This document shows, piece by piece, positions 17,501 through 29,525 of a stretch of DNA of 57,423 nt (positions within the stretch are counted from its first letter, which is position 1; every line of letters begins with the position of its first letter). This stretch comes from a virus (taxonomy: Duplodnaviria; Caudoviricetes). Below the pieces are notes generated by a model. It ran no database searches. It was given only the letters and a program-made list of their open reading frames with translations, and was not told the DNA's origin. Location of the stretch: IMG/VR virus record IMGVR_UViG_3300042561_000852, positions 1 to 57,423 of that record; one strand, 5' to 3'. The translations under genes and the position numbers were made by a program.

Positions 17501-19088
17501 GGCGACGCGCTGGTTCGCCAGTGTCAACACCCAATACAACCCGGTCTTCGGCATCATCAACCTGCTGCGCGACGTGCAGGGCTCTGCGCTGCAGCTGTCG
17601 ACCACACCGCTGAAGGGCCGAGAGCTCCAGGTGGTGCGCCGCATCCCGGCGATGCTGCGCTCGATTTACCGCGAGCGCCGCGGCAAGGGCACGGCCAGCC
17701 CCGATGATGCGCGCCTGCAGCGCCTGTGGGACGACATGCGCATGACCGGCGGCGTCACTGGCTACCGCGACCTGTTCCGTGACCCGATGGAGCGCGCGAA
17801 TGCGATCGAGGCCGAGCTGCGCAAGTCCGAGCGCGGCATGGCCAGCCGCGCCGCGCACGCCGTGGTCGACTGGCTGAGCGACTACAACGAGGCGATCGAG
17901 AACGCGACGCGCCTTGCGGTCTACGAGCAGGGCCTGGCCATCGGCATGACCAAGGAGCGCGCAGCCAGCGTCGCGAAGAACATCACGGTCAACTTCAACC
18001 GGAAGGGCCGTCAGGCGCGCGAGCTGGGCGCCCTGTTCGCCTTCTTCAACGCGGCAGTGCAGGGCACCACGCGCATGGTCGAGACGCTGGCCGGGCCCCG
18101 CGGCCGCGCCATCATGGCCGGCGGCGTTGCGCTGGGCTTCGTGAACAGCCTGATCGGCCTGGCCGTGATGGGCGGCGACGAGTGGGAGAAGATTCCCGAC
18201 CACGTCAAGGAGCGCGCGGTCATCATCCCGATCAGCGGCAGCGACTACATCAGCATCCCGATGCCGCTGGGCTACCACGTCTTCCCGAACATTGGCCGCA
18301 TCGCTGCGGAGTGGATGACCGGCGGCGCGGACAAGTCCATTGCCGGCGGCGCTGCTGAACTGCTGCGGATCGGTGTCGATGCCTTCAACCCGCTCGGCGG
18401 CACGTCGACTCCGCTGCAGATGATCATGCCGACGGCACTGGACCCGATCGCGGCCCTGGCCGAGAACAAGGACTGGACCGGCCGCCCGATCTACCGCGAG
18501 GACTTCAGCAACACTGACCCGACGCCGGGATTCACGCGGGCAAAGGACAGCGCCAGCCTGCCGGCAAAGGTCATGGCGTGGGGCGCCAACGCGCTGAGCG
18601 GCGGCGACGACTATCAGCCCGGCGCCTTCAGCCCGACGCCCGATCAGATCGACTACATCATGGGCCAGCTGACCGGCGGCCTCGGGCGCGAGATCCTGAA
18701 AGCGCAGACCACGCTGGCCGCGCCCTTCAGCGACGACGAGCTGCCGGCGTACAAGATCCCGCTGGTGTCCCGCCTGTACGGCAACACCCGCGGCGAGGCC
18801 GGCGAGAGCCAGCGCTTCTACGAGTCGCTGCGCGAGCTGAACATCATCGAGCGCCGGATCAAGGGCATGGCGCAGGCTGGCGAGGACGTGGATGCCTACA
18901 TGGCGGCCGAGCCCCTGGCGGGTCTGGTCGGCATGGGTACGCGATCGCAGTCGGTGGTGCAGCGCCTGCGCTCCGCCCAGCGTCGAGCCAGTGAGGCCGG
19001 CGACCGCGATCAGGCCGAGGCCATCCGCCTGCAGATCGCCGAAGTGATGGCTGACCTCAACCGCGAAGTGCGCGCAGCCAAGCAATGA
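5541..19088 (+). CDS. Giant DarB-like polyvalent virion protein (4515 aa): SF2/strawberry-notch-type helicase, N6-adenine MTase, ART-PolyVal-like, HExxxH, GNAT-like and LPD38-like domains
   Basis: GTGTGKT 10767-10787, DEAH 11025-11036, SAT; EPSAGHG and NPPF 12807-12818; FRRWFGNSKVVD...VYHGT...QIKSSTGNRGTFD; HEAVGH 14415-14432; C-terminal AKNITVNFNRKG...FFNAAVQG. Confidence 0.9.
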   Translation: MTNPLNPGSIQWDTDVKPAAPAPSAIRWDDDAPADQKTGAGPSWDKPSTSADVTRTWGEAATDTLTGIGQAGLSSISGVVRGINDRAPGAAEAERESGFVAGLLMDVGGKVYEAGLGAQRALGQLAGNPYVINDANRGLQEINARRAASAPEDLKRAKGAEDFAGFLDERAARVPEVQSEKARLIASEMGQLTQAEGLGDQAFATIDYFASPFLRGDLSTGGARVSKIMESLIPSLAAGGIAAKAVGAAGAGAGIQTAAQLGTMSVMEGGGAAEGARGEVLNTPIESLQSAPEFQAALRMTGGDPIRARALLADQAASISFGLGTAAAGATMGLGQVFGANVAEQAVREGVGSLATGAGVRQALLGVAGATGKEFASEFAQGASNQAAQNVGVTATGASDSLGRGVVAAGIMEGIAGAGSGAAAQGAAEVSKRLRPIFDGEDLLGGSNVQTGDPGAAQPGGLNLPDDPAAAPITTAEVVALRDQQLSALQAKANGRPDQTVVDPVTGKPVTVRGEPPQPLSEAERQMLEFLQKYADSPDKLARSLGRRLDDSAAPQAGPAAAPAPAAAPSAAAQQPPAAPAPQPSQAAPQPAAEPEQQPAQGVPTMVTQRMKAQLRERGFTDQQIRAMTPQAAWDAINSGAQAAPQAQAAQQQPAPAPSAPVGTVAAALQPQTADDLLLDRAAAELQGMDETPPIAGPVAIEPQTEEVRNEEVQQVPNVQPAPAEVAGQGLQGQEEVAPAPASAPQTGVVAAALAAQSEPADPDAVEGQLPAESTFAAGRAEDVPTERAPESFIPQVLSEIGWLEKGGRMIRDPSTAIGASSQAEIDPERGDVVGRTKWIGKPSADGRESLFWRMRPDQSLSESEATAAVQKWREGRKLGKRQQAFIDYMQKAARDYAEQWNTERTETLRAIVELEAEGIVEERDELRAAVRPNLSPEDEREALQLDDLLRRAADAGATRDQLLDILTSQPEPQQARTLWHFIKTQERDRGTDQAGPSEAAGLQPEASGRGQAESDRAGEAAPRGAEAEPAAAPAADPRAEGLTLSAPAAPAVSRQAAPPSQQGGLFAPPTRGEVLAGERKRRDDERDGKNATGRTDMMAGDGELFAGPRPEQADVEQAIAAEQVAERPKPWTVSSSEWMTSERAEIDAARASEDAEIPRLRARVEYNRNQLRGRMPKTDRARLEQLVDDDEFRILQLSSRPLDPDGFDITPARHRRIVESAMRRGESIPAEVFAEYPDLAAEAQSAPPSQGEKVEAAPDSPVVPPGVLDAPANQLVSRLNKLVEKREKWNLAHMQKYRDGSATRAQTTTHSARIADLNEQIKELRDAIAAEKSVSPSQGEKVKAARQPLENATAPDAEQESDPVITETQARQEIEWIDMGTQGGVKSLRLRFRGMAYGDLEKSGKGRWIIEGSGESFVGLAEAKRAVADTAIERLIADGYVERAPAVEAARQPSANTIFTEDAAEKARARLRAKLGRPNSGIDPEMLQDGITLAGYHIERGARTFAAYARAMVEDMGDAVRPFLKSWYLGVKFDPRAASIASEMDSAAAVESADANQEFGDVPSSPGDVAGAGQSGPAAASDVAEADAAAGGEAAAGAGQPSGRVGAGAPGARGTRGPAGGAAAGRAGRDQRVPAQQPDGREPAASDAGAADGRGSRGDGGSGVQAERDGARGATEAAARARGDRDKLTQQRAAESIPVRLGDIENIRATLPYLLEGQQDDVAKAEARFAKPDGYGMLFTNGTGTGKTFTGLGIVKRFQRQGKTNVLIVAPSDKIMSDWVKSGIPLGLDITQLASTSDAGRGIVVTTYANLGQNDALAKREWDLIVADEAHYLMRSADGERTAALDALRAITLHPDGYMQRTNMLHRELVDRGRDLSDQAKRARMSDDQRDWFRAKGLEEQASAAFRELDARRKEVQADVMAKQGASRTRAVFLSATPFAYEKTVDWAQGYLFTYPESQGGGYNSPDSFGAFMMSNFGYRMRYGKLTAPEAGVDSGLMQRMFNTRLKREGVLSGRRLDVAADYSRNFVLVESAIGRRIDQALEWLRENDGTREISDKLRESFDYLARRYTLEALKARESVALIREHLALGRKVVVFHDYKKGGARNPFDFDAGSVGPTEAQTIEQFRAEFGDLIEGMRGLISPIDLLQREFPDLLLFNGDVSPKNRRANVDTFNDDSTGPRVILVQTDAGKEGISLHDTTGEHQRALINLGMPTKPTDLIQQEGRIYRTGQVSNAIFSYLNTGTSWERATFAQTIAGRASAAENLGMGEEARALKDSLVQAFEDSAQLRPGYEGEGTGGKAADAAAARMLTEHDRAVSLYYANQKKTQRTKSAEGTDYFATPEPVGLAMVRMADIRPGESALEPSAGHGAIARWFGDTVKKTAVEPSPELASRLALSFDGRIVDGRFESLDLVNKFDAIVMNPPFGTAGRTAVDHVAKAAKHLREGGRIVALIPTGPAADKKFDAWLYEQDDKGRVVHPDLHLVATIELPAVTFERAGTNVRTRIVVVDKLPADVMQLAQQDRDLSSAETIKELFDRVENLEIRARTRPAEPEAETAPAPAPQTERKAKAESRDAARDTAKAAGVAPTGEPIVTHITGKGKELVGVVRTGITKAQAQAIDAYTFAKNGGWFIRVEHLKPAGNFSRPRSAALPAAVVDQTQTPEFRRWFGNSKVVDAEGRPLVVYHGTTFDFEAFKTGKAKKGNELPFGAHFTPSPDIASQFADSESGNVLPVYLSILAPLDLTPEANEFAVVGTPEGMLAEEAIRANKQEPKPYRRWQYQPWTQGTPKGDDLVLPLKAELDVLRGDRGRAIIQKAGYDGAVYSATYYRGPFGSGGRTLDRSYIAFRPEQIKSSTGNRGTFDPADPRIAYSQPMPGDRIPMGPLRSDAAMRFAVAAALDGWAGQKPIVRVVRTAAELPADAKMGEGWQTAEGYFDGADGVWLVTENLADPQRALEVLRHEAVGHFGVERIAGASWPSILAGVESFRGQRRNSMSKPMAAALAEAEARYEAAASDDPLLFAKELLAVMAETGTRATWMDRMLSQLRAFLRKTGLIGDAFSEAELRNVLSGAFRLVERGGSLTAGAPVAAGGMQSIRPDDVAAYILRMMGQSDADLFRYPKSDSTSFAKVVKDVSKNAIAAVKLGEVEANFTENLDDMLPAVKWGLRLPDGSQAFVYIEQPSPYTPDSGLRMFIDASAGNAGASLGSAAYAALFQWALNTGHTFIGDPNGLSTEALLRRTEHMLSAALKHGTTRMMAPHARQVDPMDKKWGPSQDWAHPLEWTDGDDVANVTALIRTSVENHRALLQGTEADGAVYRLSDGQFIGAGGQPLTDEGLRRAAATAGARFRASGRFAGPESRAAAVGGSTVARTLVLGSLLDGSTGSTGQRRELLADLAERLSAQRLTYDRARGLFYSRPGASRLQQNMSTDRSEAISQILDAIKRDGRVEGWGLRVIDVDPDVGSDGFLPPSFVWDNGDQTEETLNGTSAVGIRELSESGIDKALRLLGVGGSGENGFYFGDRVLLVNGEPKGSGEDAGEVILAEAELIGQWKKSGSGPNEILPNPPGLFSQPRLGPQLPQNLGQGPAASAARGALLAVRQRVQQLTSRETIDRLLYEFQDKFVDLKRIQAHIRESGGTVSDLNDAYLGEELYHSRVMARHERFMDSELKPLLADLNAGGFTIEQFEQFLHARHAPEANAALMKRNPDAKTVQDERDRTEQAVRTLRVQLQQAQSAGTATRAIEQALELAELERDRWKRTQPFKGTNTERAMLSGMSDADAAAIMAALSPADRAKMDALAARVDAINAKTLDQLERYGLMSRADLDAWRQTYQHYVPLHRDEANPDSVSHPTGSGFSVRGDAAKSRTGSAKAKVTNILAHIAMQREAAITRGEKNAVAKRLYVLAGQNPDPDLWTLDKAPTITRLDPATGTVRSMPDPTYRQQPNVVMVRIAGEDRAIVFSERNPRALRLAESLKGLDVDDLHVVLGWFSKATRWFASVNTQYNPVFGIINLLRDVQGSALQLSTTPLKGRELQVVRRIPAMLRSIYRERRGKGTASPDDARLQRLWDDMRMTGGVTGYRDLFRDPMERANAIEAELRKSERGMASRAAHAVVDWLSDYNEAIENATRLAVYEQGLAIGMTKERAASVAKNITVNFNRKGRQARELGALFAFFNAAVQGTTRMVETLAGPRGRAIMAGGVALGFVNSLIGLAVMGGDEWEKIPDHVKERAVIIPISGSDYISIPMPLGYHVFPNIGRIAAEWMTGGADKSIAGGAAELLRIGVDAFNPLGGTSTPLQMIMPTALDPIAALAENKDWTGRPIYREDFSNTDPTPGFTRAKDSASLPAKVMAWGANALSGGDDYQPGAFSPTPDQIDYIMGQLTGGLGREILKAQTTLAAPFSDDELPAYKIPLVSRLYGNTRGEAGESQRFYESLRELNIIERRIKGMAQAGEDVDAYMAAEPLAGLVGMGTRSQSVVQRLRSAQRRASEAGDRDQAEAIRLQIAEVMADLNREVRAAKQ
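7669..7752 (+). CDS. Nested +1-frame basic peptide MKKSSKYPMSNPPPPKSQGKGCKGKKK (27 aa)
   Basis: GAGGA SD 7656-7660, 8 nt before ATG; host frame here is acidic linker. Confidence 0.45.
   Translation: MKKSSKYPMSNPPPPKSQGKGCKGKKK
8509..8670 (+). CDS. Nested +1-frame small protein MALTKQDRAKLLDFSLKQAAEGKPSLIEQAKQRH... (53 aa)
   Basis: AGGAG SD 8497-8501, GTG start; host frame switches to A/T-ending codons and low-complexity sequence over this span. Confidence 0.6.
   Translation: MALTKQDRAKLLDFSLKQAAEGKPSLIEQAKQRHAAQKQSQPLPPPPIPAPKG
9285..9903 (+). repeat. In-frame direct repeats (PSQGEKVxAA/VxAARQP) at 9285-9315, 9549-9588 and 9881-9903
   Basis: 31-bp copies with 1 mismatch 264 bp apart; third partial copy 315 bp further. 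Confidence 0.85.
10225..10608 (+). CDS. Nested +1-frame helical protein MYQVPPETWQELASQGRLRHPTWQKL... (127 aa)
   Basis: AGGAG SD 10213-10217; CTG/GAG-rich phage-typical codons; host frame reads as GCT/GGA/CGA-rich Gly-Ala-Arg junk over the same span. Confidence 0.8.
   Translation: MYQVPPETWQELASQGRLRHPTWQKLMPLPVEKLLPALDSLVDEWEQEHPERAVRAALLVAPLLVERAAISAFLRSSPMGESLRPAMPELLTVEEAVAMADQEFRLSATEREALRKLLREHEATATS
15469..15747 (+). CDS. Nested +1-frame protein MAPYIVFPMDSSLALADSL... (92 aa)
   Basis: Host frame shows A/T-ending codons (GCT GCT GCA ACT GCT GGA) while the +1 frame is open and Leu-rich; weak SD. Confidence 0.5.
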   Translation: MAPYIVFPMDSSLALADSLSPTRDCDALLQLLERDSERVAALPVQSPERQLLAALRWRARWFSARCSTDRLDPRDNDVSYWLILQSGCPLNA

Positions 19089-19305: not shown

Positions 19306-19334
19306 GGCCCTGCCAGCAATGGTGGGGCCTTTTT
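19306..19334 (+). terminator. Rho-independent terminator
   Basis: GGCCCTGCCA-GCAA-TGGTGGGGCC-TTTTT. Confidence 0.85.
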
Positions 19335-20482
19335 CATTCCGGCAGCAGGTAATCGGCCCAGGCCTGCATGAGCTGGCGCCGCTTCTCCAGCAGGTTGCCG
19401 CGGCGATATGCGGCCTCGACCTTGTCGCGGATCGTGTGCGCCAGCGCCATTTCGGCGACTTCGCGCTCGGTCGCGGTCTGCTCGGCCGTCCAGTCGCGGA
19501 AGGTGCTGCGAAACCCGTGCACGGTGTATGGCAGGCCCAGGCCCTTGGGCGGCGGGCGCTGCAGCAGGTAGAGCATCGCGTTCTCGGACAGGGCGAACGG
19601 CGGGCGGCTCCGGGGCAAGATCTCGAGAACTGCGACAGCCTGGCGCGACAGCGGGACGACGTGCTCGCGCGCCGCCTTCATCCTTGCGGCCGGGATCGTC
19701 CACGTCGCCGCCTGCAGGTCAATCTCGGGCCAGTCGGCGCCGGTGACTTCGCCCGTGCGCGCGGCCGTGAGGATCGTCCACGCCAGTGCTCGCCGACTGA
19801 TGCTCTGTCCCGACAGCAGGGCCGCCATGAAGGCCTGGGCGTCTGCGTAGGGCATGGCTGCGTGGTTCTCGACCTTGCGCACTTTCTCTGGTGGCGGCAG
19901 TAGGTGCTGTAGGTGGCCTTTCCAGCGCGCAGGGTTCTCGCCAGCGACCGCGCCGGCGACGCGCTCGGCATCCCAGATGCGTTCGATGCGCGCCCGGATC
20001 CGCGTTGCCGTCTCGGTCTTCCCGGTCCAGATCTTGCGAAGGCATCGCAGGATCAGCGGTGTGTCGATGGCGGATACGGGCAGCTCGAAGTCGGGCCCAT
20101 GGTCGCGCAGCGACTGCAGCCATTGGTCGGCCTGCGCCTCGTTCTTCCAACCGACGGCCTGCGTTGCAATGAACTCTGCGACGGCTTCGCCCCAGCTCCG
20201 CGCAGGCGAGCCCCTGGCGGCCTTGCGCGCCTCGATCGGGTCAATGCCATCGGCTCGAAGCTTGCGCTGCTCAGCGGCGCGCACGCGAGCCTCGGCGAGG
20301 CTGAAGTCCTGCGTGGAGCCGAGCCCCATGTCTCGAAGTCGGCCCAGGTGGCGAAAGCGGAAGATCCAGCTTCGCGCGCCGGTAGGCTTCACCAGCAGGT
20401 ACAGGCCGCCGCCGTCAGAGTGCAGGCCGGGCCCGAGATTCTGGACGGACTTGGCCGTCAGCTTGTGTAGCGCCCGCCCCAT
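19334..20482 (-). CDS. int: Tyrosine integrase, P4/IntA-like with arm-binding domain
   Basis: DGGGLYLLV...WIFRF N-domain; TAARTGE, RMK, VHGFRSTF, LAH, AY catalytic motifs. Confidence 0.95.
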   Translation of the reverse strand: MGRALHKLTAKSVQNLGPGLHSDGGGLYLLVKPTGARSWIFRFRHLGRLRDMGLGSTQDFSLAEARVRAAEQRKLRADGIDPIEARKAARGSPARSWGEAVAEFIATQAVGWKNEAQADQWLQSLRDHGPDFELPVSAIDTPLILRCLRKIWTGKTETATRIRARIERIWDAERVAGAVAGENPARWKGHLQHLLPPPEKVRKVENHAAMPYADAQAFMAALLSGQSISRRALAWTILTAARTGEVTGADWPEIDLQAATWTIPAARMKAAREHVVPLSRQAVAVLEILPRSRPPFALSENAMLYLLQRPPPKGLGLPYTVHGFRSTFRDWTAEQTATEREVAEMALAHTIRDKVEAAYRRGNLLEKRRQLMQAWADYLLPE

Positions 20483-20692
20483 ACTTCGCCCCAAACTCCG
20501 GAGCGAGACAGCATGCGACTAAATGAGACTGAATGCGACAGCTACCCGCGCTGCTGCTGGCTTGCGTGGACTGCATGAGACCACATGCGACAGTCTCGCC
20601 GGACTCCTTCTCCGCCATACAAACGCCGAAGGCCCTGAGAAATCAGGGCCTTTCGCGTTCTTGGGCCTGACGTCCCACACCCTGTCCCATAC
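20476..20692. other. attP: core CTCCTTCTCCGCCA (20604-20617, tRNA-Ser-like 3' end), paired arm sites and 10-bp-period repeats
   Basis: Arm pairs GCCCCATAC/GCCCCAAAC (20476, 20488) and GTCCCACAC/GTCCCATAC (20672, 20684); ATG(C/A)GAC at 20513, 20523, 20533, 20575, 20585; core ends in CCA and is followed by a hairpin. Confidence 0.75.
20629..20654. terminator. Terminator hairpin after the att core
   Basis: AAGGCCCTGA-GAAA-TCAGGGCCTT. Confidence 0.7.
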
Positions 20693-20873
20693 TCGGGGCG
20701 GCGCTTACGGCAGCATCCGCAGCCGCCCTGATCTTGTCGCCGACCCTCTCCCAACAGTCTGAGCGCCACCCCGCATAGTGCGGGCCTTCGTCCTGGTATC
20801 CGTCGCACGCCTCCAGCAGCTTTTCAAGCTGCTCGGGCGTCAGGTCGATCGTGATCCGAATCTGCTTGTCCAT
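20643..20873 (-). CDS. Hypothetical protein
   Basis: GGGAGG SD; last gene of the leftward operon. Confidence 0.6.
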   Translation of the reverse strand: MDKQIRITIDLTPEQLEKLLEACDGYQDEGPHYAGWRSDCWERVGDKIRAAADAAVSAAPSMGQGVGRQAQERERP

Positions 20874-21052
20874 GTCCACCCCTCCCCGCCCGCGTCGGTT
20901 CGGGGCTGTTCGGTGGTCGGCTCAGACCACTGGATGTCGATCCTCTGGACGACCCACCATCCCGCAACGGCTATCGCGATCACGCCGACTGCTGCGAGCA
21001 CCAGCAGAACCTTGAAACAGCCTTCGAGCCCGTCAAAGTTCGGGACCATCAC
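20840..21052 (-). CDS. Small single-pass membrane protein
   Basis: One hydrophobic helix; SD; coupled to the upstream stop. Confidence 0.6.
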   Translation of the reverse strand: MMVPNFDGLEGCFKVLLVLAAVGVIAIAVAGWWVVQRIDIQWSEPTTEQPRTDAGGEGWTWTSRFGSRST

Positions 21053-21349
21053 TTACCCCTCCCTCGCCGCGCGGGCGGCGTCGTCTGCGGGCGGCTCTGG
21101 CACCCAATAGACTCGCCTGCTGCGCCCTGTGTATCCACATTCCGGGCAACCGCCGCCGTAGGATCGGTCCGGGTAGTAGCCCTCGTAGCAGCCGCTGCAA
21201 GCCTCCGACCATCGGATCAAGACATAGACCAGCGAGCCGGTGAGATTGCACGGCACTCCATCTTCCGGCGTCGCGTAGCGGCGGCGTCTATCGAGTCTGC
21301 CGCCGTGAAGCTGCTCGGCTTCCGCGATTGAAAGGTCACGCATGCTCAT
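21053..21349 (-). CDS. Small zinc-finger protein
   Basis: CSGC...CPECG; ATGA overlap. Confidence 0.7.
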   Translation of the reverse strand: MSMRDLSIAEAEQLHGGRLDRRRRYATPEDGVPCNLTGSLVYVLIRWSEACSGCYEGYYPDRSYGGGCPECGYTGRSRRVYWVPEPPADDAARAAREG

Positions 21350-21375
21350 GACGGCTCCCTCGCCGCGCGGGCGGC
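21059..21375. repeat. 21-bp direct repeat CTCCCTCGCCGCGCGGGCGGC at 21059-21079 and 21355-21375
   Basis: Exact copies at the 3' ends of two adjacent genes; includes the GGGAG SD of the next gene. Confidence 0.85.
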
Positions 21376-22515
21376 CAGTATTTCGCGCGCCTTGCGCACG
21401 GGATCAAGGTCGCGCTCGACTCGACGCGGCAGGTCGCCGCGAGCTTTGACTTCGGCTTCGAGATCATCGGCACACTCGGCGCGGAGGCGGTGGGCAGCAG
21501 AGAGAACAGAGTCCGGGCAGTTCTTGTCAGCGCCAAGTGCGGAAGCGACAGCATCCCACTGAGCCTTTGCCTCGATCGTCTGTGGGTGCTTCATCCACTC
21601 CCGCTCTAACTCTGCGCGTGCGGCGTCCGACCTGCGCTGTAGCGCGGCCCGAATCTGTTCTGGCGCGTCTCGCTTGAAGTCGATGGATGGATGCGCGGTG
21701 TTGTCCTGCATTTCGCCATCGTCTCGATAGGCCCGCATTCCAGCGTGCGCACTGCAAAGCAAATCCCGCAGCGACTCGTTCTCGGCGCGGAGGAGGTCGC
21801 GGTCGGCCTCGGCTTCGGCCCGCAGCTCGTGCGCGGTCTTGCCGGCCACCCGCTGGACAGTGACCACAAAAGCTTCACCGGGTGCAGAGTGCTGAGAGGT
21901 GAAGCTGAGCTGCAGGTAATTCACAGCCGCGCTGTCGGCGTATTGCTTCGCCAGAATCTCCGCAAGCAGCTGTGCGCCACCGCCTTCAAGCGATAGAGAA
22001 AGCCCTCCGTTTTCGACAGCGATGTCGAGGATTCGAGTTCCGCCGGCTACTGCGTCGGCTATTGCGTCGGCAGCAATTTCACGCTGCCGACCGACCTCCC
22101 GCTCCAGCTCCGCGACCCTCTCACGCAGCGAGTCCCTGTCAACGGCGAGAAGCAAATATTCCTCCTGCGCTGCTGCCATTGCCTGACGAAGCTTCTCGCC
22201 CTCGCCGCACGCCTCGTCATAGTCGGCGCGAAGCTGGCGCACTGCATCGACAGCGCGAGGGGCAAGCCGCCAGTTTTCTTTGCCGTCCGGGTCGGACCCG
22301 CTCAGGCGGAAGCACTGGCCGAGCTGGTCCCGCAGCGGCCCCGCCACCTGCTCGTCGCAGGCCGCGAAACACTGAGCGCCGTAGTTCTCGACCTCTGCGC
22401 GCAGGCTTTGGTCGACTTCCTTCGCTTGCCTCCAAGTAAGCCAGCCCGAATCGCGCAGGGTAGTGCGCAGCTCCGGCTCTCCCGGCAACACCGGCCCCGC
22501 GTTGGTGTTAGTCAT
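21346..22515 (-). CDS. Coiled-coil early protein (Ead/Ea22-like mosaic)
   Basis: 389-aa ORF, AGGAG SD, repeated LRAE coiled segments. Confidence 0.65.
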   Translation of the reverse strand: MTNTNAGPVLPGEPELRTTLRDSGWLTWRQAKEVDQSLRAEVENYGAQCFAACDEQVAGPLRDQLGQCFRLSGSDPDGKENWRLAPRAVDAVRQLRADYDEACGEGEKLRQAMAAAQEEYLLLAVDRDSLRERVAELEREVGRQREIAADAIADAVAGGTRILDIAVENGGLSLSLEGGGAQLLAEILAKQYADSAAVNYLQLSFTSQHSAPGEAFVVTVQRVAGKTAHELRAEAEADRDLLRAENESLRDLLCSAHAGMRAYRDDGEMQDNTAHPSIDFKRDAPEQIRAALQRRSDAARAELEREWMKHPQTIEAKAQWDAVASALGADKNCPDSVLSAAHRLRAECADDLEAEVKARGDLPRRVERDLDPVRKAREILAARAAREPS

Positions 22516-22524
22516 GGCGTGCTC

Positions 22525-22723
22525 CTATTCTGACTCAAATCGGGTTTCGCAGACATTGCATTCGTACAAATTGGGGGATTTCCTATCGGGCTTGTGGAAT
22601 ACGTTGCATCCGCAATTGCACCGAAATGGTTTCCCCCCCTACGCGGACTGTGAAGTTTTCAACATCCCCGGAAGTGGTGCGAACTGCGTTTGCGTAACGG
22701 TCATGGACAGGCAGACAATTCAT
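22525..22723 (-). pseudogene. Zinc-ribbon protein gene frameshifted at a G7 run (22633-22639)
   Basis: Removing one G gives a 65-aa ORF MNCLPVH...VGGKPFRCNCGCNVFHKP...YECNVCETRFESE that exactly fills the gap between neighbours. Confidence 0.7.
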
Positions 22724-23007
22724 TCTGGCGCGCTCCCGTAGACCTTGGCGATGGCGGTGTCCACTTTGCGCCAGAAAATGTTAGGCCCGCCGTGGGTTTC
22801 TTCGTCGATCATTTCCAACGCCTCCAAACACTCCAGCGCCCCGCATTCGGTGAGGGCGGCTTGGGCTGCAAGAATCAGATTTTCGCTCTCGTTGGCCCAC
22901 AGCTCGCTGTCTGACTCTCGCATCTGCCGTGCGACTTCTCTGCACAGTCCGCGCGCCGCCTTCATCACCATCGGGTGGGCCGGGCCGCGGTCGTTTGTCG
23001 TGGTCAT
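22720..23007 (-). CDS. Hypothetical protein (95 aa)
   Basis: AGGAG SD before ATG 23007. Confidence 0.7.
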   Translation of the reverse strand: MTTTNDRGPAHPMVMKAARGLCREVARQMRESDSELWANESENLILAAQAALTECGALECLEALEMIDEETHGGPNIFWRKVDTAIAKVYGSAPE

Positions 23008-23027
23008 TCGTGTCTCCTGTTGATTTG

Positions 23028-23136
23028 CGAGGGTGGCCGGGTGCGAGTCCGGCATGGCGGTGAACAGGCAGTTGCCCCACATAACGTTGCCGCCGCGTGT
23101 CCTCTTAGCGGGTCGCCCCCGCGTGCAACACCCTCG
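23028..23136 (-). ncRNA. Kissing-loop structured RNA C
   Basis: Closing stem CGAGGGTG/CACCCTCG; hairpins GCGGG-GGCGA-CCCGC and GCCGG-ACTCGCAC-CCGGC; GCGA/TCGC complementary. Confidence 0.65.
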
Positions 23137-23372
23137 GGCCTGAACCCTGTCGCCAAGGCGCAGGCCGGAGAGTGCCGCAAGGTGAATCGGAGTGCAGGCG
23201 GGTCCAGGGCGTCCCCCGTACAGCGCCGCGCGTGTGGTGTCGAACCCGGCATCTGCGGGGAGAGAGCAGGCCAGAGCCCACGCCCACCTGTGTGCATCCC
23301 CGTCAGTTGATCAGCCCGCTTCCACGCTGTTCCGCCCGCACTCCGATTGACCCTGCCATGTGCCGCGCCGGG

Positions 23373-23564
23373 CTAGGGCGCGGCGGCGCTCTTCCGCTTC
23401 TTCCGCTTCACCGCTGCGGCCGCATTGATGGCGAGACGCGCCAGGGCAACCCACCGCTTCGACCTCGGGTTTTCGTCGCTCATGATGCAAGCGCCCGAAT
23501 ATGCCCAGCCCTCGGCATTCATGATTGCCAAAGCTGCCGCCTCGACTTCCGCTCTCGTTGCCAT
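23373..23564 (-). CDS. Small basic-tailed hypothetical protein (63 aa)
   Basis: GGAGG SD; MATRAEVEAAALAIMNAEG... Confidence 0.6.
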   Translation of the reverse strand: MATRAEVEAAALAIMNAEGWAYSGACIMSDENPRSKRWVALARLAINAAAAVKRKKRKSAAAP

Positions 23565-23608
23565 ACCGCCCTCCATCGTGAGTAGGCGCCCCGTAGGGCG
23601 TGTGTGTC

Positions 23609-23774
23609 GCTGTCTTGGGTCTGGGCACTTGCGTCGCATCAGCCGTTCGGTGTCACGGACGATATGCGCAGCGCCGGTCTATTCGCGATTAACCGCCCAC
23701 CAGCAGGATTTCTATCCCTGCCCTTCTTCGTCTGCGGGACAAGCCCGCCGCCAAGTGCCCAGACCGAAAACAGC
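23609..23774 (-). ncRNA. Structured RNA E with a long closing stem
   Basis: Perfect 14-bp GGTCTGGGCACTTG/CAAGTGCCCAGACC extended to about 22 bp; inner hairpins GCGGG-CTTGT-CCCGC and CCGT-GACACCGA-ACGG. Confidence 0.65.
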
Positions 23775-23793
23775 GCCCCGGTGTCGTCGGGGC

Positions 23794-23962
23794 GGTTGCC
23801 GTGTACGTCTCCGGCGCGGGGCTCTCACCGCCGTGGTGCCTTGGCCTGCATGCAGGGCGCAATTCCCGTCTGTGCCTTTACGTCGAACTGTTCAGCACGG
23901 GCTTCCCGACGTTGCCCGCCTTTCACGGCGGCGGGCTGCCGTCTTCGCTCACCTTCCCAACC
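23794..23962 (-). ncRNA. Structured RNA D (larger kissing-loop variant)
   Basis: GGTT/AACC closure; GGC-AACGTCGGGAA-GCC and GCCG-GAGACGTACA-CGGC with ACGTC/GACGT; T-loop-like GCGG-TGAGAGCC-CCGC and GTGAAA-loop hairpins. Confidence 0.55.
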
Positions 23963-23965
23963 AAA

Positions 23966-24032
23966 CCGGAGCGCGGGAAGCTACGCAACCTTGGTTTCGT
24001 CCCTCCGGACTCTTCAGGCGTAGATGCTCCGG
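23966..24032 (-). ncRNA. Type I hammerhead ribozyme
   Basis: CUACGC-CUGAAGA-GUCC(GGAG)GGAC-GAAA-C(CAAG)G-UU/GCGUAG; complete core; stem I extended by CCGGAGC/GCUCCGG. Confidence 0.8.
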
Positions 24033-24097
24033 CCCGCCCTGCTACTTGCGAAGAATTGCAGGGGTATGCAAGTGCCGGCGCATCCCCGCCGGCTGGG

Positions 24098-24237
24098 GTG
24101 GTGGCCGGAGGCGAGCCCGGCTGTCTGGTGTATCCGTTACGGCCCTCTTGGAATCACAGGCACTGAGTCCTGCCGGGTATGGTCATCACCCACTATTGCC
24201 AGCACCTATCGGCGCATCGCCACTGCGCTATCACCAC
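24098..24237 (-). ncRNA. Kissing-loop structured RNA B
   Basis: Closing stem GTGGTG/CACCAC; hairpins GCGCA-GTGGCGA-TGCGC and GCCGG-GCTCGCCT-CCGGC; GGCGA/TCGCC complementary. Confidence 0.75.
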
Positions 24238-24265
24238 TGCCGCGACTCCCGCGGCGCTACGGCGG

Positions 24266-24604
24266 TCAGTCCGCCGCTTTCTCCAACTCCGTGCATTCGA
24301 ACGACATCAGCGTCTGCGGCTTCGGCAGCAGGCTTCGGCGCACGGCGACCAGCAGGCACGACGGCATCGCCTGGCCGGGTTGCAGCTGCACGATGTAGTC
24401 ACCAGTTGCGACGTCGCCGGGTGCGGGTCTGGCCCTGATCTCCAGCGTTGAGCAAGAGCCCACCAGCACCCCGCCGGACATCCCGACCAGGTACTGCGGA
24501 TTGCAGGCCTCCGCGACGATGACGCGCGTCTCGGTCAGGATCTCGATGCGATGCTCGCCAGCCGGCTCGAAGCTGGTCGCGAAGATCAGGGCCAGGGCGA
24601 TCAC
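24266..24604 (-). CDS. Small exported hypothetical protein
   Basis: Hydrophobic N-terminus, 4 Cys, GTGA overlap with the upstream gene. Confidence 0.6.
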   Translation of the reverse strand: MIALALIFATSFEPAGEHRIEILTETRVIVAEACNPQYLVGMSGGVLVGSCSTLEIRARPAPGDVATGDYIVQLQPGQAMPSCLLVAVRRSLLPKPQTLMSFECTELEKAAD

Positions 24605-25437
24605 GGCCGGAAGTTCCCGCGGTAGATCTTGGCGCTGGCGCAGCCCGCGATAGTCAGACCGTCGCGCACGAGCGACACAAACTCCGTCGCGATTCGCTCC
24701 TGTGCGTCAGCCATCGCGACCACTCGCAGCACCAGCTTCGGCGGGTCGGTCATGGTGACGCTGAGGCGCAGGCGGAAAGCGACGGGCTCGAAACAGTCGA
24801 AGGGCTGGGCGGTGAAGATGAAGCCGCTCGGCAGCTGCAGTGCTTCCTGCTTCGCTCGGGCCTCGATCTGCTCTATTGCCGTGCGACTAGCCCCGAAATC
24901 GCTGTCTTCGTGCGTCTTCGTGCTGCCGGCCTTGATTTCGATGCTGCGCACCGCCTGGATGGCAACGCCCAAGTTCGGCCGGACCTCGTCGCCATAGAAC
25001 GGCTGTGCGCAGTCGCTCCAGTCTTCCAGCCACTCAGCCAGCTGGCGCTGATTGAACTGCTTTCCGTCCAGTGCGAGCAGCGCGCGGTAGGCGCTGGTCG
25101 GCTGCAGGGTCAGGTGCGCACGGTCGTCGCCGTGGCCCGGATTGTGCTCGTCGCCGAGATTGAAGAAGGCCTCGGCCTTGCCGTTCTGGGCGTCGATGAA
25201 CACGACAGGCGTGTGCAGGCGGCTCGCGGAGTAGCTGGTCAGGTCGGCGATGCTGCTGGTGGAGTAATTGCCGCGGTAGCGAGCGCGGCCCTCCTGCAGG
25301 TGCTCGATGTTCTCGATCGTCACGCCATCGCTGCCGGCGATCAGAAGCGCAGGGGTGTGGGTGTCCAGCGTCGTCGGCTGCACGGTGCGCTGGATCAGCG
25401 TCTGCAGCGACTGGATGGCCTCGTGTGTGAGTTCCAT
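24601..25437 (-). CDS. DUF2303/YfdQ family protein
   Basis: RARYRG...FNLG...PGHGD...QRQLAEWLEDW signature. Confidence 0.85.
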   Translation of the reverse strand: MELTHEAIQSLQTLIQRTVQPTTLDTHTPALLIAGSDGVTIENIEHLQEGRARYRGNYSTSSIADLTSYSASRLHTPVVFIDAQNGKAEAFFNLGDEHNPGHGDDRAHLTLQPTSAYRALLALDGKQFNQRQLAEWLEDWSDCAQPFYGDEVRPNLGVAIQAVRSIEIKAGSTKTHEDSDFGASRTAIEQIEARAKQEALQLPSGFIFTAQPFDCFEPVAFRLRLSVTMTDPPKLVLRVVAMADAQERIATEFVSLVRDGLTIAGCASAKIYRGNFRP

Positions 25438-25475
25438 GGATCAGGTGTCCTGTGTGGGGTGTGGTGTTGCCGCGA

Positions 25476-25862
25476 TCAGTTCGCGGTGCGAGGGGCAGGG
25501 CCCAGGTGGGAAGTCGCCGAGCCAGTGGCCGCGCCGGCGCCGAGCTCCATGCGGGTCTGGGTGTTCGGGAACAGGGACAGCGCGCCGCCTTTCGCGACAT
25601 GCAGCGGCGTCTCGCTTTCGGATTCCTCGACGATGCGGCCGCGCGGCTTCGGCGTAACGCTCTTGAGGCTGTGGGTCACGGTGACCTGGTTGCTCTCGCC
25701 GATCTGCTTGACCGACAGCTTGATCGTGAGCTCGCCCTTCTTGCCGTGGGTCACGACGTTTGCGGCGATGTCGGTCAGGGCGTGGTTGATCTGTTCCTCG
25801 AACACGCCTGCATTGAGCTCGCCGAGCAGTTCGGCGAAGTTGGTTTTGCTACGGTCGGACAT
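25476..25862 (-). CDS. YfdP-like protein, usual partner of DUF2303
   Basis: ELNAGVFE...KKGELTIKL...TPLHVAKGG; AGGAG SD; adjacent to the YfdQ-like gene. Confidence 0.75.
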   Translation of the reverse strand: MSDRSKTNFAELLGELNAGVFEEQINHALTDIAANVVTHGKKGELTIKLSVKQIGESNQVTVTHSLKSVTPKPRGRIVEESESETPLHVAKGGALSLFPNTQTRMELGAGAATGSATSHLGPAPRTAN

Positions 25863-25978
25863 GGCTCGGCTCCTGGTGATTGGGGTTGCACGGTGACCGC
25901 ACCGGCCGTGCCTCGGGTTGCGTGGTCGCGCTCGTGGGGGAGGTCGCGCGACCGACTGGCGGTCTCAGTTGTGGTTCT

Positions 25979-26446
25979 TCAAAAGGGAATTTCGTCCTCG
26001 AAGTTGTCCCCGCTCATGGGTATTCCGCCGGGCGGGAGTTCTTCGCGCGCTGGCGCCGACTGCTGCCGCGTGCCGCTGCGCTGCTGGCCGCCTTCGCTGC
26101 GCTGTCCATCGCCACCGGCGCCGCCGAGCATCTGCATTTCGCGGACGTAGATCTTCGTGGCGTACCGCTTGATCCCGTCTTTCTCGTATTCCTCGGTGCG
26201 CAGCTGCCCCTCGATGTAGACCTGCTTGCCTTTGCGCAGGTACTCGGCGGCGATCTCTGCAAGGCGCCCGAAGAAAACGACGCTATGCCAGTCGGTGCGG
26301 CTCTGGCGCTCGCCCGTCTGCTTGTCCTTCCATTCCTCGTTGGTGGCGAGGCGGGCGTTCGTGATGGCCGTGCCGGATGCGGTGTAGCGGGTTTCTGGAT
26401 CGGCGCCGAGGGTGCCGACGATGATTACTTTGTTCACGCCGCGCAT
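25979..26446 (-). CDS. ssb: Single-stranded DNA-binding protein
   Basis: [10 protein letters not shown]...[12 protein letters not shown]...EDEIPF tail. Confidence 0.97.
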
Positions 26447-26640
26447 TGTTGTTCCTCAAACTTCTGCAGCAGGCCATGCAGCCCGCGTCGGATGTGGTAG
26501 TCGCGCAGCCGCTCGGCGTTGCTCTGCGGGCGTCGCGGCCTTGTCTTCCCGGTCACGCACTCGACCGGCAGGGACTGCAGCGCCATGCGTGCGGACTGGC
26601 GCATCAGCTCCTGGGCGTCAGCCTTCGGCAGGGGCGGCAT
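26434..26640 (-). CDS. Hypothetical protein
   Basis: Fills the gap in the operon; start uncertain. Confidence 0.45.
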
Positions 26641-26944
26641 GGTCGACCCCGTACAGCTGGTAGGCAGTTGGCCCGTTGGGCGCATCGCCAGTTCCAACAT
26701 CAACGCCCAGAGCGCGCGGAAGCGGGTAGCGCGCCGGGTCAGTGGTGGCGTCAATGACGCGGCTGGACGTGATGCCCAGCTCCATGACCTCGACCGGCGT
26801 CAGCGGCTCGGAGACGATCAGGCTGGCCACGGCGTTGACTGCGCCGGCCTTGGTCAGAGCCTTGACGAAGTGCTCGGCGCCGGCCGGGCCGGTGACTCGG
26901 TACAGCTTCGGCTCTGTGGTTCGGGTGCGGGTTGCGGTTTCCAT
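26618..26944 (-). CDS. Hypothetical protein
   Basis: GAGGA SD, typical codon usage. Confidence 0.65.
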   Translation of the reverse strand: METATRTRTTEPKLYRVTGPAGAEHFVKALTKAGAVNAVASLIVSEPLTPVEVMELGITSSRVIDATTDPARYPLPRALGVDVGTGDAPNGPTAYQLYGVDHAAPAEG

Positions 26945-26961
26945 GGGTTCCTCTCGGGTGA

Positions 26962-27762
26962 TCAGCGGCTGCGGACGGTGGTGGACTGCTCGGAGAAGAC
27001 GCGGACGCCGGGAATGCTGGTCTTGCCCTTCATTCCTTGGACGGTGCCGCGGATGGCCTTTTCGTCGGCCTGCAGGTAGCCGATCAGCTCGGGGCGCTCG
27101 GCAGCGGCCTTGACCAGCGCGGCCAGGTCGGTGATCTCGAACTTCCAGATTTCGCGACTGCTCACGCCGGCGACCTTCGGCGCTTCGACTGCGACCGGCA
27201 TCGGCGGCGGTGCGATCTCGGCAATCTCGGCGACCTCGCGCGCCTCCTCGGCCTGCTGCTGGGCGCGCTGAAGGGCTTCCGCATCGGCGCCTTCCTTCGC
27301 CAGCCGGTCGGCCTCCTGCTGCGCCTCGCGCGCCTTGCGGGCGGCTTCCTCGCGCTCGGCGCGGGCCTGTGCTTCCGCCTTTGCGCGGGCTGCTGCAGCC
27401 TCCTGCGCCTTCTTCGTCTGGTAGCCGCTGACGGCTTTGCGCAGAAGCCCCTCAGCCTCGCCCAGCATGTCGCCGGCCGGACGGAACAGGTCCATGATTT
27501 CGGCCTTCGCCTCGTCGAGCGGCTTCGTGTACTGCATGCGCAGCGCGGTCAGCTGCTTGCCGGCGCCGGCGATCTTGGTCAGCTCGTCGGCGGCGTAGGC
27601 CAGCGTGCTGTCGTCATCGACGGTGATCGCCAGGGCCAGCTCGCGCGCATCCTCGGCGACCGGAAGGGCCAGCGTGCTCACTGCTTCTCGGGCAGCGTTG
27701 ATTGCGGCGCCGCCAGCGGCGAGACAAACAGGGTTGTGGGTGGTTTCGGCGATGGCGTTCAT
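26962..27762 (-). CDS. Coiled-coil protein of the recombination module
   Basis: TKPLDEAK...F.P, Ala/Glu coil, C-terminal WKFEITD...IPGVRVF; AAGGA SD. Confidence 0.75.
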   Translation of the reverse strand: MNAIAETTHNPVCLAAGGAAINAAREAVSTLALPVAEDARELALAITVDDDSTLAYAADELTKIAGAGKQLTALRMQYTKPLDEAKAEIMDLFRPAGDMLGEAEGLLRKAVSGYQTKKAQEAAAARAKAEAQARAEREEAARKAREAQQEADRLAKEGADAEALQRAQQQAEEAREVAEIAEIAPPPMPVAVEAPKVAGVSSREIWKFEITDLAALVKAAAERPELIGYLQADEKAIRGTVQGMKGKTSIPGVRVFSEQSTTVRSR

Positions 27763-27980
27763 CGGCTGCGTCCTTTGTTCCAGTGCGTGTTTAATTTGGT
27801 GTATGCCGGGCATTTGCTTTCGGCTTTCATCACGTATGGGCGAATGTCCCTCGCCTTTACCTCAAAGAACTGCGCCCGATCCACGAAACCCATGCGCAGG
27901 TCGCTATCGCTTTCCTCGAACATTTGCCGCAGCTCCTCAAATCCGATCCAGCAGATCGGGATGGTTATTTCCCTTCTCAT
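27759..27980 (-). CDS. Hypothetical protein (lower GC)
   Basis: ATGA overlaps on both sides. Confidence 0.6.
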   Translation of the reverse strand: MRREITIPICWIGFEELRQMFEESDSDLRMGFVDRAQFFEVKARDIRPYVMKAESKCPAYTKLNTHWNKGRSR

Positions 27981-28570
27981 GCTGCCTTGGCTTGCCAGTT
28001 GTGCAGGGTCAGCGCGGCGAGAAAAACGCGCTGGTCCGCGGGATCGGTAAGGGGGATCAGGCGGAACTTGTCGTCGACCAGCTGCAGGGCGTAGCGGTCG
28101 ATGCGGACGCCGGGCGGCAGTGCCATTTCTTCGCGCAGAGCGATTTCATAGCCGGCGGTCTGTGGGCCGGTGGTGCGCTGCACCTGGGCGACGCGCTTGG
28201 CGTCAACCAGTGCGCGCTGTCCGTGGATCAGCAGGTACAGGTCGAGCGTTCCAGCGAAGCCGTAGCGGCGACTGGCGACGCGCATTTCCGATCTCAGGAT
28301 CTCGGCGCGACTCTCGACCAGAAACCGGCGCCACGCCGGCAGGTACTGCTCGATGCTCGGGTGCAGGCTCAACTCGTCGAGCACGCCCTGAACGTCCAGC
28401 TCGATCATCTTGTGCACGGCCGTTCCGATCTCGGCCGCGCGCTCCATGACCTCCTGAGAAACGCCGCGGTAGGCGTTCGCGGACAGTGGCGCCAGCACCT
28501 GGGTGACGCTGGGCAGCACGCGGCCGGTTTCGTCTCGGTAGGTGTGCGTGTCCTGGTCGAAGGCGATCAC
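27977..28570 (-). CDS. PD-(D/E)XK exonuclease
   Basis: HTY...PSVTQVL...GTAVH...E...FAGTLD...DAK...QTAGY; GTGA overlap with RecT. Confidence 0.85.
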   Translation of the reverse strand: MIAFDQDTHTYRDETGRVLPSVTQVLAPLSANAYRGVSQEVMERAAEIGTAVHKMIELDVQGVLDELSLHPSIEQYLPAWRRFLVESRAEILRSEMRVASRRYGFAGTLDLYLLIHGQRALVDAKRVAQVQRTTGPQTAGYEIALREEMALPPGVRIDRYALQLVDDKFRLIPLTDPADQRVFLAALTLHNWQAKAA

Positions 28571-29391
28571 GACTCGGCCTTTTCTGCGAGCTCGCGCAGC
28601 GACTTCAGGGTTGCGGTGATGTTGGCCGGCGTGATGCTCGGGAACTTGGCCAGCAGTTCGGCCTCGTTGAGCCCGGCGCGCTGTGCGGACGCCAGCACCA
28701 CCTTGCGCTGGCCCTCGGCCAGTTCTGACAGGCCGGCGCCGTCCTGCTGCTCGTTGTTTCCGGCTTCGCCGCCGAGAGGGTCGGAAGCCGGCGCCTGCTC
28801 GTGCTCGTGCTGGATCGCAGCAGCTGGCTTCGCCTTCGGCATCAGGTCGGTGGCTGGCTTGACCTCGGCGGCCGTTCCGTTGATCACGGTCGGGTCGTCC
28901 ATTTCGTCGGGCGTATAGACGCCAAGCAGAGCCTCGGGAGCGTGGCGGCGTGCCCACTGGCGCGCGCCGCGGTAGGCCAGCATGTCGTCCGGCGACTTCT
29001 TCCAATTGCCGTTGTCGGTCTGCCACGCGCCGACCGTGCCCTCGATCGTGCGGTCTTCGTGCTCGCCGCGAAGACGGCCAATGACGCGCACTTTGCGGTT
29101 CTGGCCCTCGCCCGAATACTCGTAGCGCAGCCGGCCCTCAAGCACGCCCATGCTGTAGAGCACGGCGGCGACCAGCTTGCCCTCGTAACAGAGCTTGCCG
29201 CGCACCACGGACGTGCACTGAGCCACGCTCAGTGCGTCCATGCCCCAGCGCTGGGCCTGCATCACGACGAGCAGGCAGTCGCCTGCAGAGCCGCGCAGAT
29301 GATCGGGCACCAGCTTCGCGGTGCTCAGGACTCGGGACAGGCTTTCAGCTTCGCCGACGTTGGTCGGCACGAGTGCGGTCATTGCATTCAT
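28567..29391 (-). CDS. recT: RecT-family ssDNA annealing protein
   Basis: VPDHLRG...DCL...QAQRWGMD...W.K.P..MLAYR.AR.WAR...PE.LLGVYTPDE. Confidence 0.85.
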   Translation of the reverse strand: MNAMTALVPTNVGEAESLSRVLSTAKLVPDHLRGSAGDCLLVVMQAQRWGMDALSVAQCTSVVRGKLCYEGKLVAAVLYSMGVLEGRLRYEYSGEGQNRKVRVIGRLRGEHEDRTIEGTVGAWQTDNGNWKKSPDDMLAYRGARQWARRHAPEALLGVYTPDEMDDPTVINGTAAEVKPATDLMPKAKPAAAIQHEHEQAPASDPLGGEAGNNEQQDGAGLSELAEGQRKVVLASAQRAGLNEAELLAKFPSITPANITATLKSLRELAEKAES

Positions 29392-29525
29392 CAGATTGCT
29401 CCAGCCCGCCAGAACAGCCCGGCGAGCAACAGAAGGGAAAGGGGCAGGGACACGCGCAGGTCGAGCAGGAAGCGCTCGGCGCGGTCGGAGAAGGCCATCA
29501 CGGCGCGGTCAATCCTCGTAATCAC
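29391..29525 (-). CDS. Small membrane peptide (about 44 aa)
   Basis: Open frame fills the gap; Leu-rich C-terminus; TGATG overlap with recT. Confidence 0.4.
   Translation of the reverse strand: MITRIDRAVMAFSDRAERFLLDLRVSLPLSLLLLAGLFWRAGAI

Follow-up and report, generated by a model that had tools for sequence, protein, structure and literature searches.

The lake-water phage genome IMGVR_UViG_3300042561_000852 from IMG/VR, analyzed here over its full length of 57,423 nt (the window; G+C 66%, estimated completeness 99%), carries a type I hammerhead ribozyme on its minus strand, an identification that the sequence comparisons reported below confirm. The ribozyme appears to be the catalytic center of a module of about 130 nt that would fold on its own as the transcript is made, and it is surrounded by three extra helices and a stem I extension that recur, with many compensatory changes, in other phages. 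Judging from its sequence, the module probably folds during transcription and cuts itself in cis between U23987 and G23986 of the early-left transcript of what its PHROG matches indicate to be a lambda-like temperate phage. In IMG/VR, the family defined by this module has nine distinct members, one of them the window, and a further 15 records are from Klebsiella phages; the 12 sequences analyzed below are the nine IMG/VR members and three of the Klebsiella phage copies.

An original prediction, made from the letters of the window alone, had proposed a type I hammerhead with a complete core, a 6-bp stem I carrying a 7-bp extension, and a cut between 23987 and 23986, and all of these sequence elements were recovered where it had placed them. 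The core residues CUGAAGA...GAA-A...U-U lie at 24017-23987, and the same arrangement is present in 12/12 family members, in which the core is invariant except at N7 and H17 is U, A or C but never G. In the window copy, the pairs next to the core are C-G (1.1-2.1), G-C (10.1-11.1) and A-U (15.1-16.1), GAA joins stem II to stem III, stem I is open, and stems II and III are capped, the latter by only 2 nt. The cut position within a hammerhead follows from the hammerhead consensus, and the predicted site agrees both with that consensus and with the match to the Rfam type I hammerhead model (RF00163). This model aligns end to end (positions 1-45 of 45, 24023..23981(-)) with 33.0 bits, corresponding to an E-value of 5e-7 in a 141-nt search and of 4.8e-8 for the whole 57-kb genome.

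The hammerhead is embedded in a larger plan that is the same in 12/12 sequences. Its 5' part consists of GCAUAC, the 5' strand of a hairpin designated P0 (6 nt), 3 nt, strand d (7 nt), AAGUA, and the 3' strand of P0; its middle part of 3-4 nt, strand a (7-9 nt), 0-8 nt, strand b (6 nt), CUGANGA, stem II, GAA, and stem III; and its 3' part of H17 with the cut, strand b' (6 nt), strand c (6 nt), 2-3 nt, a', 5-7 nt, c', GUGA, and d' (7 nt). The spacing from GCAUAC to AAGUAG is constant at 16 nt, and the unpaired motifs GCAUAC, AAGUA, and GUGA show little or no variation. What was supposed to be an 8-nt internal loop of stem I holds strand c of the hairpin c-c', whose loop in turn carries a'. Since no nucleotide is claimed by two helices, all the helices are mutually compatible, and rather than a set of alternative folds we infer a single fold with two pseudoknots, i.e., a double-pseudoknot cage. 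Two other candidate functions for its conserved motifs were dropped: a short open reading frame (ORF) starting at the GUG in the 3' flank has only nine codons in the window, and with GCAUAC as a promoter, transcription would start within the covarying P0.

In the alignment to our covariance model of the module (R1), 97.4% of 234 cells in the nested helices are paired, compared with 71.0% in shuffles and 25-38% in slid controls, and 0/500 shuffles reach this value. Compensatory changes were found at 18/26 pairs; they include those in distal stem I (7/7 pairs, so that the predicted extension is borne out), proximal stem I (2/6), stem II (3/4), and stem III (1/3). All cells are paired in the four pairs of stem II and the three pairs of stem III, as are 92.1% of the cells in the stem I extension a-a'. 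Because this alignment was fitted to the structure of the model, P0, d-d', and c-c' were counted from fixed sequence anchors only. Counted in this way over the 12 members, P0 is paired in 72/72 cells with 5/6 pairs compensatory, d-d' in 83/84 cells with 7/7 pairs compensatory, and c-c' in 72/72 cells with 5/6 pairs compensatory. In controls on the nine IMG/VR members, sliding the strands by 1-3 nt left 23-28/63 cells paired for d-d' and 24-37/54 for c-c', and pairing strands across sequences gave 0.59 and 0.67, respectively. Hairpin c-c' was also recovered by RNAalifold on two sequences, and an alignment-free comparison found a-a' helices of 6-12 bp within sequences vs. a mean of 5.4 bp between sequences. 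On the other strand, the G-U pairs found in these helices would become A-C mismatches, an indication that the minus strand is the one read as RNA.

Several numbers, taken individually, are compatible with the alternative that GC-rich non-coding DNA happens to resemble the hammerhead consensus by chance. The bare core pattern CTGANGA-N8-38-CGAAA has one match in the window vs. 0.78 expected, with at least one match in 53/100 shuffles, and the fold energy of the 67-mer around the hammerhead is ordinary (z -1.27; 24/200 shuffles fold equally well); neither is by itself evidence beyond chance. The RF00163 score also falls 1 bit below the Rfam gathering score of 34 bits, which is a curation threshold rather than a biological feature; the shortfall results from the 2-nt loop III, and the gathering score is exceeded by L015, the nearest relative (36.8 bits). 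No match was returned by a whole-window Rfam search at the gathering score, and a 3-kb Rfam search by E-value gave a noise match only, the hammerhead being missed in these larger searches, where the filters are stricter. Against a chance origin stand the genome-wide E-value of the full-length match, the 12-member family with compensatory changes in all helices, and the score of 126 bits under the family model. The RF00163 match is, moreover, the only one above noise in the genome (the next reaches 13.9 bits, E 0.1), the type II hammerhead model has no match there, and RF00163 gave none over the cut-off in 14 control genomes. Homologs with compensatory changes settle the question, and chance, which the family data already refute unless the relatives were artefacts, retains a negligible probability.

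The relatives were found through a series of pattern scans. A scan of IMG/VR with the stem II and core pattern returned at least 120 stretches, so that hammerheads of types I and II are plentiful in viral contigs; among the matches listed, L015 was homologous beyond the core, with 76.8% identity to window positions 23935-24069 over 138 nt (blastn) and nothing similar elsewhere in its contig. Keeping stem I and the core while leaving stem II free yielded five further members (L230, L231, L232, L233, and L239), along with the more distantly related L234, three representatives of a different type I subfamily, and three matches due to chance, and keeping the upstream motifs while leaving stem I free yielded L242 and L243 (identical to L246) plus two chance matches. 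Only L015 was a real relative among the seven stretches returned by a P0-loop pattern and the 16 returned by a 3'-flank pattern, and a pattern with fixed stem II returned L015 only. Model R1, built from seven members (128 positions, 26 pairs), scores the window at 126.2 bits over 23945-24071 and the IMG/VR members left out of model building at 82-87 bits. A blastn search of GenBank phages with one member located the module in the 15 Klebsiella phage records, which include Taipeivirus phages (UPM 2146, Magnus) and phages of about 46 kb (DP01), and R1 scores three of these copies at 99.8-105 bits. The copies in the cultured phages UPM 2146, Magnus, and DP01 are unannotated, and in Magnus the module is overlaid by tiny "hypothetical" ORFs.

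Elsewhere, R1 had no matches in 151 genomes sampled from one phylum, and on five genomes it gave two weak matches, to other type I hammerheads. A metagenome scan with a pattern fixing parts of P0 and stem II returned a single stretch (L143), unrelated outside the core, and a scan of the genome_contigs collection with stem II fixed as GUCC/GGAC returned 83 stretches, none of them of this family; neither result says much about rarity. Almost all of these 83 stretches (L144-L223) are type II hammerheads in metagenome-assembled genomes of Patescibacteria (Saccharibacteria, Paceibacteria, and similar groups), often two per contig. Weak full-length R1 matches of 31-40 bits were seen in three other type I phage hammerheads of IMG/VR (L234, L022, and L235), and inspection by eye of L234 and L022 showed a hairpin directly after stem I with a loop that could pair upstream. 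The stem I pseudoknot may thus extend beyond the family described here.

Stem III of the window copy had been described as unusually small, and it is the shortest and weakest in the family. It can be drawn as 3 bp with a 2-nt loop or as 2 bp with a 4-nt loop (ACC-AA-GGU), and L015 has ACAC-UU-GUGU; the usual stem III consists of A-U, C-G, and C-G, sometimes 4 bp, with a 4-nt loop (AAUA, ACAU, GAUA, AUUU, GAAA, GCAA, or GGUG). As isolated hairpins, the window and L015 stems have folding energies of +1.6 and +1.7 kcal/mol, respectively, and the other seven range from -0.9 to -5.0 kcal/mol. The original prediction had described CCAAGG as near-palindromic, as in hammerheads that cleave as dimers. 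The reverse complement of this hexamer is CCTTGG, however, and what remains is simply a 3-bp hairpin with a 2-nt loop, since any hairpin with a tiny loop has a near-palindromic look.

In the dimer model, two RNA copies would pair through ACCAAGGU into a double hammerhead, and cleavage would be bimolecular and concentration-dependent. The unstable stem III is compatible with it, as the 8-mer homodimer is computed at -4.7 kcal/mol compared with +1.6 for the hairpin, and dimeric hammerheads with a short palindromic stem III are known (PMC3088659). Yet ACCAAGGU is not self-complementary, nor is the stem III segment of any of the nine IMG/VR members (0/9), and a window dimer would carry a tandem A.A mismatch (UU in L015). 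Seven of these nine members have an ordinary stem III of 3-4 bp with a 4-nt loop, as expected of a family built for monomers; the genome offers no tandem partner, its next RF00163 match being at noise level; and the three intramolecular clamps favor a self-contained fold. In addition, -4.7 kcal/mol is presumably too weak to join separate mRNAs at cellular concentrations. Cleavage as a dimer is therefore very improbable.

We infer cleavage in cis, its timing, and its effect on expression from the sequence, the family, and its covariation. In the proposed mechanism, the 2'-OH of U23987 would attack the next phosphate, giving an upstream RNA that ends in a 2',3'-cyclic phosphate and a downstream RNA that begins with the 5'-OH of G23986. 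The clamps probably shield the ribozyme fold from the GC-rich flanks and offset the very weak stem III, and they probably also bury both new ends in structure; the downstream 5'-OH would run straight into hairpin c-c'. The usual decay enzymes do not readily attack RNA from structured cyclic-phosphate 3' ends or structured 5'-OH ends, and the same would be expected of both module ends in the window transcript. The module could then act as an insulator or end-maker, allowing separate expression and decay of the recombination genes and of the integrase-proximal part of the operon.

Several observations weigh against this mechanism. The window copy misses the gathering score, and given its weak stem III, it could be slow or dead. 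The nested-helix counts come from an alignment fitted to the model structure. A conserved tertiary contact between stem I and loop II, of the kind with which hammerheads cleave fast at low Mg2+, was not identified among the members by inspection, and inspection of the 12 members likewise showed no covarying pairing partner for loop II; the GGAG of loop II in the window could pair with UUCC of strand c, but c is paired with c' in every member. After the cut, the products would still be joined by some 20 bp (b-b', a-a', and d-d'), so that separation of the mRNAs is not obvious. Finally, the Klebsiella copies keep P0, a-a', c-c', and d-d' even though C.A or A.A replaces G-C as the 10.1-11.1 pair, which hints that the scaffold may be selected beyond cleavage.

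Some of these points lead to a different view of the function, namely that the window copy is crippled or very slow and that the scaffold serves mainly as a structured RNA, with the core kept for folding rather than cutting. Such an RNA might form a protective structure on the 5' or 3' side, be bound by a protein or by RNA polymerase, or direct processing by host RNases. Speaking for this view are the stem III of the window copy, which no other member has weaker, the Klebsiella copies with an intact scaffold around a non-canonical 10.1-11.1 pair, and the near invariance of the unpaired GCAUAC, AAGUA, and GUGA, which have no assigned role. By contrast, all catalytic core positions are intact in the window and in all nine IMG/VR members, and H17 is never G, a pattern not easily accounted for unless cleavage is under selection. 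Natural hammerheads that are active despite a variant core have also been documented (PMC3088659), and we consider a mainly structural role unlikely, although less so than dimer cleavage.

Self-cleavage in cis remains the favored explanation. As a further, more tentative suggestion, the module might represent an undescribed class of phage RNA of about 130-165 nt, a "caged" hammerhead, in which two flank-to-flank pseudoknots, one joining the P0 loop to the 3' tail and the other threading the stem I extension through the downstream hairpin, with the ~20 bp mentioned above, would turn the cut into a held nick instead of separating the products. The intact cage around the non-canonical 10.1-11.1 pair of the Klebsiella copies speaks for a cage function that is selected in its own right. 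If this somewhat doubtful proposal is true, the module could be a reversible cleavage-ligation switch, or an end-protecting insulator ahead of terminase genes, tRNA arrays, or, in the window, the integrase-proximal part of the early operon.

Hundreds of bacterial hammerheads have been described near integrases in prophages, without constant neighbor genes; some cleave in vitro and in E. coli within long phage transcripts, and processing of such transcripts has been suggested as their role (PMC3088659). The window module shares with these type I hammerheads the core, the three-stem junction, and the open stem I (RF00163; PMC3088659), and likewise belongs to a temperate phage, where it is within a few kb of the integrase and part of a long same-strand transcript, with a gene context that varies between relatives (PMC3088659). 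Unlike them, it adds P0, c-c', and d-d' as well as a-a' around the ribozyme, has the conserved single-stranded motifs GCAUAC, AAGUA, and GUGA, and is present as a single copy rather than as a pair flanking a gene. The Rfam model spans only 43 nt of the ~130-nt module, the flanks of which match no Rfam family. Watson-Crick pseudoknots outside the core are also a feature of pseudoknot-stabilized hammerheads (PMC3088659; PMC11300833). In the known cases, however, the pseudoknots join stems I and II, pairing loop I or stem I with loop II or its 3' tail over at least 4 bp, whereas in the window, in which no covarying pairing was found for loop II, they link the two flanks with each other (d-d') and tie the stem I extension into the loop of a downstream hairpin (a-a' across c-c'). 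Hammerheads in temperate phages are thus known, and the caged architecture was not found described, the literature that we found containing only stem I-stem II pseudoknots, although the alignments of PMC3088659 may list members.

Resemblances to other ribozyme systems are more limited. A very short stem III is common to the window copy and the dimeric hammerheads of avocado sunblotch viroid, newt satellite 2, and the Aedes and Nematostella repeats; unlike in these, stem III and its loop are not palindromic in the window, there are no tandem copies, and the relatives have a normal monomeric stem III. RiboJ-type synthetic insulators consist of a cis-cleaving hammerhead followed by a hairpin, giving a structured 5'-OH start. 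The order of hammerhead and hairpin is shared by the window module, which is natural and more elaborate and would clamp the 5' product too. Theta (HDV-like) ribozymes near the tRNAs of gut phages (PMC10879173) recall the tRNA adjacency of the DP01 copy described below, but they belong to a different ribozyme class, and the window has no tRNA.

Prophage hammerheads have been known since 2011; the module, a compact ribozyme with three extra helices each carrying many compensatory changes, would provide a well-defined handle on their role. Flank-to-flank clamps in place of a stem I-loop II contact would be a new mode of stabilization for hammerheads, and the module would be a natural counterpart of the synthetic insulator ribozymes. 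Its presence in Klebsiella phages that are in culture makes cleavage, clamp function, and the effect on downstream expression directly testable. For annotation, it is worth noting that the 45-position Rfam model, used with the gathering score and default filters, misses such copies in whole-genome scans.

In the relatives, the module is always intergenic and on the strand of its neighbors, while the neighboring genes differ, and its carriers are unrelated temperate and virulent phages. Terminase genes lie downstream within 0.04-2.2 kb in L231, L230, L015, and L239 (four of the nine metagenomic members, the window included in the nine), and L232 has a RusA-like resolvase gene upstream. By eye, strong intrinsic terminators (a GC-rich hairpin followed by 5-7 U) are present within about 40 nt after d' in L230, L232, and L243, and the 3' cleavage product of these three would be a small RNA of about 100 nt. 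In Klebsiella phage DP01 (L249, 2500-2890), the module ends 6 nt ahead of an array of tRNA-Ser, tRNA-Arg, and tRNA-Met, and the UPM 2146 copy occupies an unannotated region of 3.3 kb, followed at a distance of 2 kb by two tRNAs. Among the members found, only the window has the module in an early-left operon. Several relatives also have, by eye, a hairpin with a GAAAG-type loop at the position of hairpin e of the window (Table 1).

Table 1. Features of the module and of the surrounding phage genome (window coordinates)
Feature	Position	Strand	Basis or remark
Whole conserved module, ~128 nt (GCAUAC, P0, hammerhead, 3' clamps to d')	23942-24069	-	R1 and blastn to L015
Hairpin P0, CCCUGC/GCAGGG, 15-nt loop ending AAGUA	24037-24063	-	anchor-based covariation
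d, UCUUCGC, in P0 loop	24048-24054	-	pairs with 3' tail d'
Stem I extension, 5' strand a, CCGGAGC, then AU	24032-24026	-	pairs with 23966-23972
Type I hammerhead proper (proximal stem I, core, stem II, stem III)	23981-24023	-	RF00163 match
Stem I, 5' strand b, CUACGC	24023-24018	-	sequence
Core CUGAAGA (C3-A9)	24017-24011	-	CUGANGA kept in 12/12 members
Stem II GUCC/GGAC, GGAG loop, closed by G10.1-C11.1	24010-23999	-	sequence and covariation
Stem III ACC-AA-GGU	23995-23988	-	sequence and covariation
Predicted scissile bond, 3' of U17, 5' of G1.1	23987/23986	-	hammerhead consensus applied to sequence
Stem I, 3' strand b', GCGUAG, then 8-nt stretch	23986-23981	-	sequence
c, CUUCCC	23975-23980	-	pairs with c'
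Stem I extension, 3' strand a', GCUCCGG	23972-23966	-	within loop of hairpin c-c'
c', GGGAAG	23953-23958	-	pairs with c
Conserved GUGA	23949-23952	-	directly before d'
d', GCGAAGA	23942-23948	-	pairs with d
Hairpin e, GCCCGCC...GGCGGGC	23914-23936	-	after module; by eye, not counted
CI-like repressor	30864-31580	-	PHROG match
RecT	28567-29391	-	early-left operon, PHROG match
Exonuclease	26962-27813	-	early-left operon, PHROG match
SSB	25979-26446	-	early-left operon, PHROG match
phrog_204 gene	between SSB and YfdQ-like in listing	-	early-left operon, PHROG match
YfdQ/DUF2303-like protein	24601-25437	-	early-left operon, PHROG match
112-aa ORF	24266-24604	-	upstream flank of non-coding stretch
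Non-coding stretch with ribozyme module	23083-24265	-	no codon-position GC periodicity across ~23080-24150
120-aa ORF	22720-23082	-	downstream flank of non-coding stretch
389-aa ORF	between 120-aa ORF and integrase in listing	-	further down operon strand
Integrase	19334-20494	-	further down operon strand, PHROG match
DnaB-like helicase		+	PHROG match
Terminase small subunit	42760-43500	+	PHROG match
Terminase large subunit	43487-44947	+	PHROG match
Portal		+	PHROG match

The early-left operon runs from the CI repressor side through RecT, the exonuclease, SSB, and the YfdQ-like gene towards the integrase, and the hammerhead appears to sit on its transcribed strand, inside a non-coding stretch of about 1.2 kb between co-directional genes. 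The spread of GC content among codon positions is 0.03-0.15 in 24265-23083, compared with 0.2-0.45 in the adjacent genes. The original prediction had placed the ribozyme between two further RNAs, termed B and D, as part of a self-processing array. The wider stretch is indeed non-coding and contains two strongly folded domains, but the direct flanks of the hammerhead are the covarying helices of the module itself (P0, c-c', and d-d') rather than separate RNAs. Self-processing of an RNA array is unproven at this locus, where there is neither a known RNA family nor a tRNA: ARAGORN found no tRNA or tmRNA in the window, and Rfam searches of the flanks (23560-23990, 23080-23580, and 24020-24300) gave only noise-level miRNA matches.

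The two folded domains (23177-23356 and 23608-23775) are about 170-180 nt long, and each is closed by an inverted repeat of 24-25 nt (88 and 92% complementary, respectively). Both fold beyond shuffled sequences (z -4.0 and -4.6; 0/200 shuffles as good), and neither matches an Rfam family. Directly adjoining the second domain is a terminator-like hairpin (23794-23774(-)) whose U-run belongs to the long stem of that domain.

Nucleotide similarity of the locus to known phages is slight. For the 1.2-kb query, the sole link by blastn is a 60-nt match at the start of the 120-aa ORF (23050-23110), in which 22 records of D3-like Pseudomonas aeruginosa phages show 84-86% identity; no GenBank phage matched positions 20000-30000 by megablast, and a search of IMG/VR with the YfdQ-like neighbor protein gave no relative. 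The module is identical in contigs from three lake-water DNA runs, which thus provide no informative variants; no RNA run is listed as a carrier of the phage, and a run labeled as RNA-seq (probably DNA) does not cover 23914-24419. Elsewhere in the genome, one ORF of 4515 aa (5541-19088(+)) shows the GC bias normal for coding sequence (GC3 0.81); it follows the tail region and immediately precedes the end of the genome with the integrase. In one lake-water run (X3), a variant contig has 16 nt in place of 23592-23914, and precisely at 23941/23942, where the hammerhead module has its 3' edge, contigs of the same run diverge from the window, which suggests cassette-like exchange within the phage population.

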